In this document: positions 24,001-27,000 of the stretch, piece by piece
Position numbering within the stretch: position 1 is the stretch's first letter
Layout: each line of letters begins with the position of its first letter
NCBI GenBank assembly: GCA_963765205.1
Contig: CAVXVB010000009.1
Span: 512,001-576,000 of the forward strand
DNA from: an uncultured Verrucomicrobiae bacterium
GTDB taxonomy: Bacteria > Verrucomicrobiota > Verrucomicrobiia > Opitutales > JABDGR01
Direction: 5' to 3'
Length of the DNA stretch: 64,000 nucleotides
Position numbers: made by a program

Positions 24001-27000
24001 GTTGTTTTCAACTTGGTTGAAGGCGGCTTGGGCGACGGCCAGCCGGTGACAGTTTATCATGCTGCGGGTGAGGCGACGGATGGGGGTCTGGGCACGCGTC
24101 CAAACATCACGCGGGTGCCGTTTACTTTCGACAAGGATCATTTCACCACCGCCCCCGAGGCCGAGCCGGCAGAGGAGCCGGAGGCGGCATTTTTTTTGAC
24201 CGATGGGCGCGCCAGCGTGATAGACCAGATTGAGGCGTTTCCCGCCTGGTTGCAGGCGCGCGGCTGGGAATTGGCACGGATTCTTCTGGTGGTGGACTGC
24301 GCGCTGGCGGCGGCGCACCCGGTCGTCACGGAGTGGCACGCGGCCTGTGTGCATTTTGCCGACTGTGTGCTGCTGAACCGCCGCAATGCGGCCAGCCACG
24401 AGTGGGCGCGGGATTTTCAAAAAAAGTTTGCCGAGGCGCGCTACCCGTGCGTGTTTGTGCTGGTCAAGCAAGGGCGGGTGCCCAACCCACTGGTCGTATT
24501 ATTTCCCGAGGCGCGGCGCATGACCCTGGTGTTCGACGACATTGACCCGGTGGATGAACTGGAACTGGACGAGGAGAATTTGCCTGAGGAACCGTTCACG
24601 CTGGAAAACAAGGTGGATCCCTATTTCGAGCGCCTCCTTAGCGGCCACCGGGTCAAACCCGTGCCGGATGTCACGGCGTATTTGGCGAAACGAGAGCACG
24701 CCAGCTCTTGACTGACAAAGTTAGAAGAGCAACTCATTTTGCCGCGGCTGGGCGCGGCTGGCGGGGGCGAGGAACGCGGCATAGCGTTCGACCCAATCAT
24801 CCAATTTTTCGAGGTAATAGCCCGGATCGTAGGGGGCCTGGACGGGGTCGTAACTTTCAATCGGGCGCGCGCGCTGCCAGTCGGGCGCGTTATTTTTTGC
24901 GCCGGTGGTGATGTAATAGGTGACCGATTCGCCCTGGCGCGGGAGCGGATTCATTTTCAAGGCGACTTCGAGCGCGGCGCGGCGGGGTTTGCTGCTTTCG
25001 ATTTCGATCGCATGGCGGTAGGCTTCAGGGCTGAGGCTGAGGAATTCCGTTTTCGCGAGCCGACGCACGTCCACCGAGCGATCGCGCAGCCCGGCGCGCA
25101 ATTTCTCCAGCAATTCCTCGGGAGCCGGGCCGCTGGCGAGGAGGAGGTGGCGCAGGAGGGCCTCGGTCAATTCGCGCAGGAACGGCTCGACCCCGCGCGA
25201 GCGCAGCGCGGAGCCGCGGGTGGTGACTTCGCCGCCGTCGAGCAGCGCATAGTTTTTCGCCTTGTAGCAAAACATGGCCTTGAATTTCCCGTCGAATTCC
25301 AGATCAATCCCGGCGGGCAACACGCCGGCCACGCGCGCGAGCAGTTCTTCGGGCTGGTCGTAAAATTCGGGCGCGTGCAGGTAGAGGCCGTCGGTGTCGG
25401 CTTCGAGCACCTTGGCTCCATGCCGCTCAAATTCCACGATCAGCGCCTGGAGCAATTCGCGCCCGCGGGCGGTGACTTCCGCCGCGAGTTCGCTGTCGCC
25501 AAAGCGCGCGCCTTCGAAGCCGAGGTAGCCGTAGAAAGAATTGATGATGATTTTGAAACCGGCCTGGCGCGCCTGGTATTCGCGGCGCAACTCGGCGGTC
25601 GCGGCGTCGCGCGCGAGGTTTTTATAGGCGAGGCGTTCCGCGCGCAATTCCCGCAGCAGCGGAATAAACGCCCCGAGCGAGTCGCCTGCGGGATTGCGGC
25701 CGATGAGTAGGAGCAGGCTGGGGTAGAGCGACGCAACGTCGAAGTGCAGCACTTTGCGGAACACGCCGGTGAGCAGGCCGCGCGTGTAACCGCCTTCGAA
25801 GGGCCGGGTTGGCGGCGGCGTGGGCAGGGCGCGGCGGGCGTGGAAATATTTTTCTAGCAGTAGAATCTCCGCCTTGAAAGCCGAGCCGCGCAGGCAGGCG
25901 TCCTGTAATGTAATAGGAAATGTTTTGGCCTGCGCGACGTAGCCGGGGAGCAGCAAGTCGGCGAGGGCGCGCGTCTCACGCAAGTCGTCGCGCAAATAGG
26001 CGCGGAAGCGCTCGCGGTCTTTGGCAAAAGTTTCTTGAATCGCCGCGGGGGCGAGGTAGGTGCGGGCGTCGTCCGCCTTGGTCAGGCCGAGGTGTTGCGC
26101 GACGGCCTTGAGGCCATAGGAGGGCAGCTCGCGCGCGGCGAGGTCGTAAAGCTGCACCATCAAGTAGGTGTCGAACACGGCGCGGCCGGGCAAATCGCAG
26201 CGGGGAAAATCGAGGTGGCGTTCGGCCACGCGCAGGCGGCCCGGGCGAAACGCGGCTTCCTGCCCAAAGCGGCCCCACGCGCACGGCACATGGTGTCGTC
26301 GGCAGCGCACGCGGAGGTAATCCAGGTCGAACTTGAAAATATTGTGCCCCTCAATGACATCCGGGTCTTCTTCGGCCAGCACGCGATTGAGATCTTCGAG
26401 CAGCACGCGCTCGGCGTCGTGGGTCGGCGCGCTGATTTCCAGCAGGCGCGGGCCGCGGGCGGTGCCGAGGCCGATGGCGAGGACGCGGTCACCGGCGCGC
26501 TGCGCATTGGAAAAACCACCTGGCTCGCCGCACGCGGTTTCGATGTCGAGTTGTAGGCGGCGCAAGTGCGCAAAGGTCAGCCCGGCGAACATCCGGGTGC
26601 CGCGCTGCAAAAGAAACTGGCTTTCGAGGGCGCGCAGGGTTTCCGAATCGGTATTGCGCGGGCGCTGCTCGAGCCAGGCGCGGTAGGCGGCCACGTCGGC
26701 GAAATGCGCGAGGTGGGTTAATTGGCCGTCGCCAGCCAGGCGCTCGACGTGTGCGGAGGCCGGGTCGGGGAGGGCGGATTCGTTCACCCAGGCAAATGGT
26801 TGAAAGGCTGATGAGGAGACCACGCGCGGGCCATCGCCCTCGGCTGTGGCTAGGCGGGCGACGCCATCCGCGCCGACCCATAAACCACACAGCGGCGGCG
26901 GGCCGGATTCCCATTCGGCGCGCGGGTCGGGAAGCGGGGGCGTGGTTTGGCTCATGACGCGTTCGACCGGGGTTTTCGGAGAACGCGACCAGTCTTAAAG

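Follow-up and report, generated by a model that had tools for sequence, protein, structure and literature searches.

A G3-group family B DNA polymerase whose distribution complements that of DNA polymerase I in Verrucomicrobiota

A gene for a family B DNA polymerase (PolB) lies in the window analyzed here, a 64,000-nucleotide stretch of contig CAVXVB010000009.1 from an uncultured Verrucomicrobiae bacterium, and it raises the question of whether this enzyme does the work of DNA polymerase I (Pol I, or PolA). The first-pass annotation had proposed that Pol I was displaced by PolB together with a separate flap nuclease (FEN). When the genome (12 contigs, 4.02 Mb, 92.18% complete) was searched in six frames with PF00476, no family A polymerase was detected; the best match, at 10.8 bits (E = 0.3), fell below the cut-off, and all 10 bacterial controls were positive. 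A genome-wide profile search with PF00136 gave a single match, the PolB gene. The other enzymes reported at first pass were also recovered, namely, the free-standing FEN and the small 3'-5' exonuclease (Table 1), DnaE2, which accompanies DnaE1 (two PF07733 matches), and PolX, whose reading frame shifts where the PHP domain begins. A search for sequencing runs listed six DNA runs from three studies and none of RNA.

Table 1. Features of the PolB gene (positions in the window) and of two nuclease genes elsewhere in the genome (contig:positions)
Feature	Position	Strand	Evidence
PolB gene, 744 aa (P0001), assigned to the bacterial G3 (PolEpsilonN-like) group	24721..26955	-	ORF and translation, Pfam
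PolB stop codon (start codon ATG)	24721-24723	-	
3'-5' proofreading exonuclease region, residues ~130-330	25966..26568	-	Motifs in translation
Polymerase region, residues ~400-724	24784..25758	-	Motifs in translation
C-terminal hexapeptide QNELLF, candidate beta-clamp-binding motif (QxxLxF / QxxLF type)	24724..24741	-	
Stand-alone FEN, 288 aa	C8:428439-429305		PF02739, 144 bits; PF01367, 75 bits
Small 3'-5' exonuclease	C5:516005-516805	-	PF01612, 72 bits

The description of PolB as intact was borne out, since the Pfam spans were identical to those first assigned (PF03104, 43.5 bits, residues 178 to 285; PF00136, 75.8 bits, residues 433 to 724; gathering cut-off, 23 for each) and all six classical motifs were readable in the translation. 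The exonuclease motifs are ExoI LDIET (D137/E139), ExoII GHNIFKFDLDYL (N205/F209/D210), and ExoIII YLRDDLRET (Y320/D324), and the polymerase motifs are MotifA DVASLYPS (D406/Y411), MotifB KIIINSFYGYLG (K468/N472/Y475/G476), and MotifC LEADTDG (E518/D520/D522). When 57 PolBs from Verrucomicrobiota were aligned, the exonuclease residues were conserved in 53 to 56 of the sequences, and the nine polymerase residues, including the MotifC Glu, were invariant. Opitutales orthologs were 57 to 62% identical, and in a tree sampled only from relatives retrieved with G3-like queries, the PolB clade was monophyletic (support, 100) and branched roughly as the species tree does; PolB is inherited vertically in Opitutales. 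The invariant catalytic residues, the level of identity, and the monophyly together indicate that PolB is under constraint. Its sequence points to an active, proofreading polymerase that is probably clamp tethered. C-terminal motifs of the form Qxx[LMIF][FLW] or QxxLx[FL] were present in 13 of 23 Opitutales PolBs (absent from the other 10), 12 of 34 PolBs from other Verrucomicrobiota, and 13 of 31 from other phyla, and on the strength of this motif PolB may bind the clamp. A predicted complex of the beta clamp of this genome (L291:736-1866) with PolB residues 690 to 744, modeled without control runs, scored 0.02 against a mark of 0.34, a value that speaks neither for nor against binding.

The assignment of PolB to group G3 rests on the MotifC Glu and on its phage relatives. 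A conserved MotifC Glu is common to G3, B10, and PolEpsilonN (PMC7544198), and the PolBs of Salinibacter and Nostoc phages belong to G3 (Kazlauskas et al. 2020, PMC7544198). PolB has this Glu (E518, two residues ahead of the DTD), and a tblastn search with P0001 against 50,697 phage records gave 35 matching records, at the top of which were 10 Salinibacter phage records (32 to 34% identity over 84 to 91%), followed by Nostoc/Anabaena/Dolichospermum phages and then crAss-like phages. The N-terminal region, the architecture of a DEDDy exonuclease plus polymerase, and the candidate C-terminal clamp-type motif also resemble those of G3, to which Timinskas et al. (2026, PMC12926913) ascribe a beta-clamp motif, and no feature of PolB contradicts membership. 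Both papers leave the group uncharacterized, and according to the latter, G3 enzymes are so both biochemically and genetically. Membership in group G1, the E. coli Pol II-like group, was rejected: ExoII reads GHN in PolB versus GWN in the Pol II-like clade, no NCBIfam family scored above its cut-off, and the best Pol II equivalog, NF004421, reached 113.5 bits against a cut-off of 570. Similarity to PDB entries was likewise lower for E. coli Pol II (5.6e-19) than for archaeal B3 enzymes (9.5e-43). E. coli Pol II is also a bacterial PolB with proofreading, and it carries a C-terminal clamp motif, but it is found together with Pol I.

The neighbors of the PolB gene are housekeeping genes (trpE, a sigma-70 gene, hsp20, and smr). 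No mobile-element genes were found in the neighborhood, and a location on a mobile element was ruled out by this gene context together with the PolB tree. Across 58 polB loci with 1.5-kb flanks, there were no conserved neighbors and no linkage to FEN, ligase, or clamp genes; the 154-aa ORF upstream of polB in the window was not conserved at these 58 loci.

The mutual exclusion of PolA and PolB described at first pass was at least equally strong in two overlapping samples, one of 201 Opitutales genomes of at least 90% completeness (strong PolA, at least 495 bits) and one of 301 Verrucomicrobiota genomes (strong PolA, at least 478 bits). Among the Opitutales genomes, 40 had a strong PolA and 97 had PolB, with 1 having both and 65 having neither; in the phylum sample, the corresponding numbers were 117, 139, 0, and 45. 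The sole order genome with both enzymes, G105, carries a PolB that is Pol II-like (YGDTDS, 138 bits). Family A polymerases of phage or element type stood beside PolB in 11 of the 139 PolB genomes of the phylum sample and 8 of the 97 of the order sample. That a strong PolA and PolB are almost never found together in one genome suggests that the two enzymes do the same job.

A pattern of this kind could also arise through phylogenetic inertia or artifact, that is, from a small number of old events or from assemblies that are incomplete or contain mis-binned contigs, given that the families are kin, that the present genome is 92% complete, and that many assemblies are fragmented; the earlier caution that the pattern reflects few events was of this sort. 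Several results leave this explanation largely refuted and very hard to credit. At least 13 of the genomes with PolB and without PolA are closed (one contig), so assembly gaps are not the source of the pattern; five families (f15, f23, f33, f46, and f53) switch internally between PolA and PolB; and, genome by genome, FEN is fused or solo in accordance with the PolA state. In an RpoB tree built from 86 genomes, chosen with their polymerase states known, PolA requires at least 13 changes, a count that is not a rate. Thirteen phylogenetically independent pairs differed in PolA, and PolB changed in the opposite direction in about 7 of them, was unchanged in about 6, and changed in the same direction in none (median sign-test p = 0.016), a complementarity independent of phylogeny, as expected of a Pol I stand-in. 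In two of the switching families (f53 and f46), PolB is replaced by a FEN-less PolA: genera nested among PolB carriers have a PolA with PF00476 only (542 to 821 aa) and have kept the solo FEN. An AU test did not reject the canonical Opitutales PolAs as one clade (p = 0.418), so the PolA tree cannot separate vertical descent plus sorting from transfer within the phylum.

The nuclease domain PF02739 was found in 199 of the 201 order genomes and 296 of the 301 phylum genomes (495 of 502 genome rows over the two overlapping samples), nearly always as exactly one match, which was fused in frames of 845 to 1096 aa in Pol I genomes and solo, at about 285 to 400 aa, elsewhere. The FEN had been taken at first pass for what Pol I left behind. 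In the FEN tree, all 19 sampled solo FENs formed one clade (support, 99) that was separate from all Pol I FEN domains, including those of Verrucomicrobiota, and that branched as the species tree does, which rules out an origin by truncation of polA at its own locus. Rather than a Pol I remnant, the solo FEN is a gene lineage that is old and distinct. When polA loci were first compared with solo FEN loci for synteny, they had no block in common; a conserved block emerged once its neighbor gene was searched for in Pol I genomes. In genomes with canonical Pol I, the solo FEN has been lost from this block. The direction of displacement may be the reverse in part of Opitutales. G105 has Pol I plus a solo FEN, the latter still inside the old gene block.

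Genomes with neither polymerase, already noted at first pass, include closed ones (among them G003, G178, G273, G294, G310, G329, and G440); in G003 (0.9 Mb, one contig), DnaE was alone among the polymerase families searched, and no PolB remnant was found in five genomes of this class that were probed with P0001. With neither enzyme in 65 of the 201 order genomes and 45 of the 301 phylum genomes, PolB is not required wherever Pol I is absent. Its function is therefore either dispensable or within the reach of Pol III, and the Okazaki gaps need not be filled by PolB. In other named phyla, 35 of 39 genomes with a G3-like PolB also had a full-strength PolA (Chloroflexota, Armatimonadota, Latescibacterota, Bacteroidota, Desulfobacterota, and others). 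The complementarity of PolA and PolB is thus limited to Verrucomicrobiota, the idea of the G3 family as a Pol I substitute in general does not hold, and G3 generally has another or an additional role.

These genomes with neither enzyme and the coexistence in other phyla are what would be expected if PolB were an accessory polymerase of repair, restart, or translesion synthesis like E. coli Pol II, without a lagging-strand role; in all PolA-less Verrucomicrobiota, Pol III would fill the primer gaps, the solo FEN would remove the primers, and PolB and Pol I would overlap only in repair synthesis, enough for redundancy. The bacterial PolBs known to date are indeed accessory, non-essential enzymes (PMC12926913). 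This account has a real but distinctly minor share of the probability, as it leaves unexplained why exclusion is strict in this phylum alone, and the exonuclease and polymerase sites and the order-wide identity of about 58% fit a constantly used, accurate enzyme. The absence of any phylum genome with both enzymes, and the different PolB type in the lone genome with Pol I and PolB, would also follow if, in Verrucomicrobiota, the two were not redundant but incompatible. Competition for nicks or the clamp, for instance, might lead to harmful strand displacement, and selection would then remove one of them whenever they met. Such incompatibility is improbable, considering that both families occur together in the phyla listed above and that family A polymerases of phage or element type do stand beside PolB within Verrucomicrobiota.

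The best explanation, to which we assign a probability of roughly 57%, is that gap filling in Verrucomicrobiota relies on two modules that can stand in for each other, canonical Pol I and the pair of PolB and solo FEN. The job of Pol I would be done by either of two alternatives, one being canonical Pol I, with FEN, 3'-5' exonuclease, and polymerase in a single chain, and the other being the ancient stand-alone FEN with a separate polymerase, usually the G3 PolB. In a few genera, the partner of the solo FEN would be the FEN-less PolA, and in many lineages there would be no extra polymerase, the task presumably falling to Pol III. PolB would most likely fill short gaps, the Klenow role of Pol I, both where primers have been removed and during excision repair; the solo FEN would cut flaps in trans, and ligase would then seal. 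We infer a part for PolB in Okazaki maturation from this scheme, and redundancy would be the cause of the exclusion. Of the displacement first proposed, the absence of Pol I, the presence of PolB and FEN, and the exclusion thus stand; the FEN as a remnant does not, PolB is not needed for life without Pol I, and the direction may be the reverse in part of Opitutales.

By analogy, the PolB-plus-FEN module is supported by the reconstitution of Thermococcus Okazaki maturation with PolB, Fen1, and ligase (PMC4432273). As in archaeal and eukaryotic maturation, where PolB or Pol delta, Fen1, and ligase act on PCNA, there would be a family B polymerase, a FEN in trans, and no fused Pol I; the system considered here differs in that the bacterial beta clamp would take the place of PCNA and the FEN belongs to the bacterial Pol I-type family (PF02739/PF01367). 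A more far-reaching version is tentative, and we think it rather more likely to be wrong than right: Verrucomicrobiota would mature the lagging strand in an archaeal/eukaryote-like manner, by means of a Pol-epsilon-related PolB and a separate flap nuclease that both act on the bacterial beta clamp; this two-gene module and canonical Pol I would be cassettes of which one has taken the place of the other at least seven times by transfer within the phylum; and G105 would be in transition.

Loss of Pol I (PolA1) with a stand-alone FEN has already been published for Tenericutes and Verrucomicrobia by Timinskas et al. (2026, NAR, PMC12926913), and the present genome, without PolA and with one solo FEN, is a further case. 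In the sections of that paper that were consulted, no statement was found on a link to G3 PolB, on strict exclusion over about 500 genomes, on a separate ancient solo-FEN lineage, or on three conditions of the solo FEN (with PolB, with FEN-less PolA, or with no partner). Literature searches turned up no report that connects PolB with the loss of Pol I, and the link between G3 PolB and Pol I appears to be new, as far as the consulted sections of that paper go. Among the groups of bacterial family B polymerases, G3 ranks second in size, and its phylum-wide, repeatedly evolved exclusion of Pol I provides a concrete functional hypothesis. Near-universal Pol I is evidently not fixed in the bacterial replisome: the nuclease is kept, and the polymerase can be swapped for an unrelated enzyme or a stripped-down PolA or can be dropped. 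This matters for deciding which functions of replication are truly essential and for understanding the course of non-orthologous displacement. Close PolB orthologs occur in cultured species, among them Nibricoccus aquaticus, Ruficoccus, Horticoccus, and Opitutaceae strains, in which the hypothesis can be put to the test.

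The polymerase gene of the window, polB, encodes a family B enzyme (P0001) in which all six classical motifs were readable; the first-pass annotation had called its exonuclease and polymerase motifs intact. No NCBIfam model scored above its cut-off for P0001, the top one being a Pol II equivalog (113.5 bits vs 570). Among solved structures, the closest by sequence were archaeal B3 enzymes (1wns, 9.5e-43), and the match to E. coli Pol II was much weaker (5.6e-19). The neighborhood consists of ordinary chromosomal genes, including asd, trpE, and genes for a YkuD transpeptidase, a sigma-70 factor, hsp20, a Smr protein, a sensor kinase, a PLD enzyme, and two ORFs without a Pfam match; none of these neighbors was kept beside polB across 58 other loci. 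The two ORFs that flank polB had no Pfam match and no counterpart beside polB in the same 58 loci.

Coordinates of polB, its motifs (read from the translation) and its flanking ORFs, and of polymerase genes elsewhere in the source genome (G000) and in two genomes of other phyla
Feature	Sequence	Positions	Strand	Description
polB (P0001)	window	24721-26955	-	single open frame, 744 codons, ATG start; C-terminal end QNELLF
PF03104, exonuclease domain	P0001	residues 178-285		43.5 bits
PF00136, family B polymerase domain	P0001	residues 433-724		75.8 bits
ExoI	P0001			LDIET
ExoII	P0001			GHNIFKFDLDYL
ExoIII	P0001			YLRDDLRET
MotifA	P0001			DVASLYPS
MotifB	P0001			KIIINSFYGYLG
MotifC	P0001			LEADTDG
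Flanking ORF	window	23950-24711	+	253 aa
Flanking ORF	window	27003-27467	-	154 aa
DnaE2 and Y-family match	G000, contig C5	83357-86406		DnaE2 in a 1092-aa frame
PolX	G000, contig C8	298652-300600		outside the window
polA	G480 (Acidimicrobiia), contig C5	806797-807899		two or three frames, in-frame TGA
polA	G463 (Thermomicrobiales), contig C21	32156-33302		two or three frames, in-frame TGA

Bacterial group G3, set up inside the EpsilonN-like clade by Kazlauskas et al. (2020, PMC7544198), is marked by a Glu in MotifC, and its viral members, according to that paper's text on the group, are solely PolBs of Salinibacter and Nostoc phages. This Glu was found in P0001 and in 57 of 57 Verrucomicrobiota orthologues; across the 57, the polymerase catalytic residues were invariant and the exonuclease residues were retained in 53 to 56. 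Matches to P0001 occurred in 35 of 50,697 phage records, with 10 Salinibacter records at the top (32 to 34% identity over 84 to 91% of the protein), followed by Nostoc, Anabaena, and Dolichospermum phages and then by crAss-like phages. ExoII contains GHN in P0001, whereas the Pol II-like clade has GWN. Given the MotifC Glu, the phage relatives, and the GHN, P0001 would belong to G3, an assignment made on these features rather than on a tree holding the authors' reference groups. A phmmer search of 1.84 billion representatives showed the PolB family to be large, with 6107 proteins matching at E<=0.001, 578 of them at E<=1e-30. In another protein collection, the top 120 of 5550 matches were all close relatives (57 to 90% identity), with the names Opitutales, Opitutaceae, Ruficoccus, Nibricoccus aquaticus, Horticoccus, and Verrucomicrobiota among them.

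The claim that the source genome (12 contigs, 4.02 Mb, 92.18% complete) lacks Pol I (PolA, family A) was borne out by a six-frame PF00476 search, in which the best score was 10.8 bits and 10 of 10 bacterial controls were positive. The genome carries a stand-alone 5'-3' flap nuclease (solo FEN; 288 aa, PF02739 and PF01367), a small PF01612 exonuclease, DnaE1, DnaE2, and two Y-family matches. One of these, weak and ImuB-like, adjoins DnaE2 in an arrangement resembling a mutasome cassette. The reading frame of PolX shifts at the start of the PHP domain: the polymerase part is in frame with the first PHP motif (FHNHT), and the remainder of the PHP domain (GIADHS onward) lies in the +1 frame, a split that may be a frameshift, a pseudogene, or an assembly error.

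PolA and PolB were then counted in two overlapping samples, one of 201 Opitutales genomes with completeness of at least 90% (order sample) and one of 301 Verrucomicrobiota genomes (phylum sample). In the order sample, PolA matches were strong in 40 genomes (495 to 545 bits), reached 258 to 272 bits on contig ends in 3, were weak only in 8 (48 to 104 bits), and were absent in 150; PolB was found in 97, and 65 had neither a strong PolA nor PolB. The two coincided only in G105 (family f15; 8.3 Mb; loci L289 and L015), where canonical Pol I stands beside a PolB of another, Pol II-like type (138 bits, MotifC YGDTDS) in place of G3. The phylum sample held 139 genomes with PolB, 117 with strong PolA (478 to 548 bits), none with both, and 45 with neither. 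The earlier statement that the two enzymes almost never occur together was thus upheld, with joint occurrence in 1/201 and 0/301 genomes. Assembly gaps are ruled out as the cause, since at least 13 PolB-positive, PolA-negative genomes are single contigs. Both states occur, in different genera, within five families (f15, f23, and f33 in the order sample; f46 and f53 elsewhere).

Weaker family A matches alongside PolB were present in 11/139 phylum-sample and 8/97 order-sample genomes, some in frames of about 1490 to 1560 aa, reminiscent of the primase-fused, element-type PolAs described in PMC10201439. Family A domains scoring 244 to 283 bits were seen in PolB carriers G013 (C128), G043 (C144), G252, G290 (C35), G325 (C2), and G458 (C274). 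Their open frames span about 1320 to 1560 aa, or 797 aa in G043, and often lie on short contigs; the proteins are probably fused polymerases carried by elements or phages.

Whether kinship of the families creates the pattern, a worry raised in the first-pass annotation, was addressed with an RpoB tree (FastTree, 1256 columns) of 86 genomes, comprising 85 of 86 searched (G016 gave no match) and the source genome. The minimum number of changes was 13 for PolA, 17 for PolB, 12 for the neither state, and 23 for the three states jointly, which is not a rate because the genomes were picked with states known so as to include every order-sample family and every within-family contrast. Thirteen pairs differing in PolA were connected by paths without a common branch; PolB was opposite in about 7 (5 to 8 over 200 pairings), differed in the same direction in 0, and was equal in about 6, all of them PolA versus neither (median sign-test p = 0.016). 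The switches are numerous and always reciprocal, which answers the worry.

The exclusion is a property of Verrucomicrobiota in the wide sense (taken here, as in GTDB usage, to include Lentisphaeria) and not of the enzyme family. This follows from a search of one-genome-per-species contigs with an alignment of 21 G3-like proteins, which gave 584 relatives; the best 80 were retained, and 50 of those 80 genomes, picked for spread of phyla, were searched with PF00476. Among them, 35 of 39 genomes of other named phyla had strong PolA (472 to 596 bits) beside G3-like PolB (Chloroflexota, Latescibacterota, Armatimonadota, Actinomycetota, Kryptoniota, delta-proteobacterial groups, Binataceae, Acidobacteria, Bacteroidetes, and Ignavibacteriota), and strong PolA was absent from 7/7 genomes titled Victivallales, Chthoniobacterales, Chthoniobacter, Methylacidiphilum, or Verrucomicrobiia. 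In the remaining 4 of the 39, PolA was missing (G476 and G496) or interrupted by stop codons or frame changes (G463 and G480), the latter being either Pol I decay beside PolB or long-read assembly errors. A further four genomes had no stated phylum; two had strong PolA, and the PolBs of the other two clustered with Victivallales.

A PolB tree of 88 rows was built from the source genome, 22/28 order loci, 26/30 phylum loci, and 39/41 other-phylum loci (picked from 80), with partial and redundant frames removed by hand; two loci gave no frame. Opitutales PolBs formed one clade (support, 100), sister to those of f46, f53, f63, f67, f77, and f79; two more Verrucomicrobiota clades (f39 with Chthoniobacterales and Methylacidiphilum; f68, f69, and f85 with Victivallales) fell among other-phylum sequences. 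Branching inside Opitutales roughly matched RpoB; PolB was therefore present early in the order and was lost in nested Pol I lineages. The Opitutales stem (0.95 changes per column) is very long relative to within-clade branches, which could reflect rapid change when the order arose or a shift in function.

The flap nuclease is nearly universal, PF02739 being found in 199/201 order and 296/301 phylum genomes, almost always once (exceptions, G104, G105, G210, and G287), in 845- to 1096-aa PolA frames where Pol I is canonical and in frames of roughly 285 to 400 aa elsewhere. A tree of 35 FEN sequences placed 19/19 solo FENs, drawn from PolB, neither, and FEN-less-PolA genomes of Opitutales and of deep-branching f46 and f53, in one clade (support, 99) apart from all 16 fused FEN domains, including the 8 of Verrucomicrobiota. 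The internal splits of the solo FEN clade (f46/f53 vs Opitutales, small-genome Opitutales vs the rest) match the RpoB tree. Solo FEN is therefore an old gene passed on vertically, and its origin as a stump of polA is rejected. A conserved block, F-C-A-A-D-FEN-E-H-G in cluster letters, was found in PolB genomes G009 (f9), G023 (f23), and G045 (f15) and was retained without FEN in Pol I genomes G033 (f33), G125 (f30), and G051 (f23); hence, the ancestor of f9, f15, f23, f30, and f33 had solo FEN, and the Pol I genomes lost it later. G105 has Pol I alongside a solo FEN still inside its block; no other inspected genome has both FEN forms, and G105 looks like a transitional state.

A PolA tree (46 sequences, last 600 residues each; 31 from Verrucomicrobiota and 15 from other phyla) resolved two clades. 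Clade I holds canonical proteins with FEN, 3'-5' exonuclease, and polymerase, among them those of Opitutales f15, f23, f30, and f33 and of other classes of the phylum. Clade II (support, 100) unites the PolA of Opitutales f27 (L093 in G053), which has FEN and polymerase but no proofreading domain detectable by Pfam, with f46 and f53 PolAs (542 to 821 aa; L076, L077, L079, L194, and L195), in which Pfam finds the polymerase domain PF00476 only. Clade II may equal the "PolA1-like" group mentioned in PMC12926913. The f46/f53 PolA carriers are nested among PolB carriers in the RpoB tree and retain solo FEN: the polymerase alone was exchanged and the nuclease stayed, which is the clearest indication that PolB and a Klenow-like PolA are able to work with the same partner.

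These distributions led us to propose, with a probability of roughly 0.57, that G3 PolB fills the polymerase niche of Pol I in Verrucomicrobiota; the steps from distribution to biochemistry are ones that we infer. The niche would be the accurate filling of short patches at primer sites and in repair gaps, with PolB probably acting on the beta clamp and solo FEN in trans, and the PolB-solo FEN module and canonical Pol I would replace each other because they are redundant. A rival that we keep alive holds that PolB is a repair polymerase overlapping only partially with Pol I; coexistence of the two in other phyla and the frequency of the neither state speak for it, and both are real evidence against a strict reading of PolB as the Okazaki gap filler. 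The basal small-genome Opitutales clade (0.8 to 1.3 Mb; f3, f6, f17, f18, f32, f34, and f35) consists entirely of neither genomes, and the state also arises inside PolB families in the RpoB tree (G178 in f20, G011 in f11, and G217 in f46). P0001 had no match even at E<=1 in five such genomes, of which G021, G025, and G003 have one DnaE and G178 and G011 have two. The Y family was matched in three of the four searched (G178, G021, and G025) and not in G003, a single 0.9-Mb contig in which DnaE was the sole polymerase family detected, plus solo FEN. Both Pol I and PolB are thus dispensable in Verrucomicrobiota, and Pol III with solo FEN must suffice.

Pol I loss and the PolB family were already known. 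Timinskas et al. (NAR 2026, PMC12926913) report the loss, accompanied by a stand-alone FEN, for Tenericutes and Verrucomicrobia. In their account of G3, they describe it as experimentally uncharacterized, as having a beta-clamp motif and both catalytic sites (exonuclease and polymerase) intact, and as present in all Chlorobi; their genome list includes at least 9 Verrucomicrobia. That account draws no link between G3 and Pol I loss, which the paper's per-genome A- and B-family tables may show for those few genomes, and full-text literature searches turned up no paper proposing displacement of Pol I by PolB. The observation of the first-pass annotation was thus correct and could be extended; its interpretation had been anticipated in print as to Pol I loss and is new as to the link with PolB. 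Apparently new as well are the exclusion with its many independent switches, its limitation to one phylum, the separate FEN lineage, and the alternative partners of solo FEN.

Constraining the canonical Opitutales PolAs to one clade lowers the log likelihood by 4.4 units (AU test, p = 0.418), a value compatible both with vertical descent and with regain by transfer. The sister of Clade I comprises Bacteroidota, Ignavibacteriota, and Kryptoniota, and one Latescibacterota PolA (L191 in G469) is nested within it. In two separate trees, this Pol I and its FEN domain nest in the canonical Verrucomicrobiota clade, which hints at interphylum transfer.
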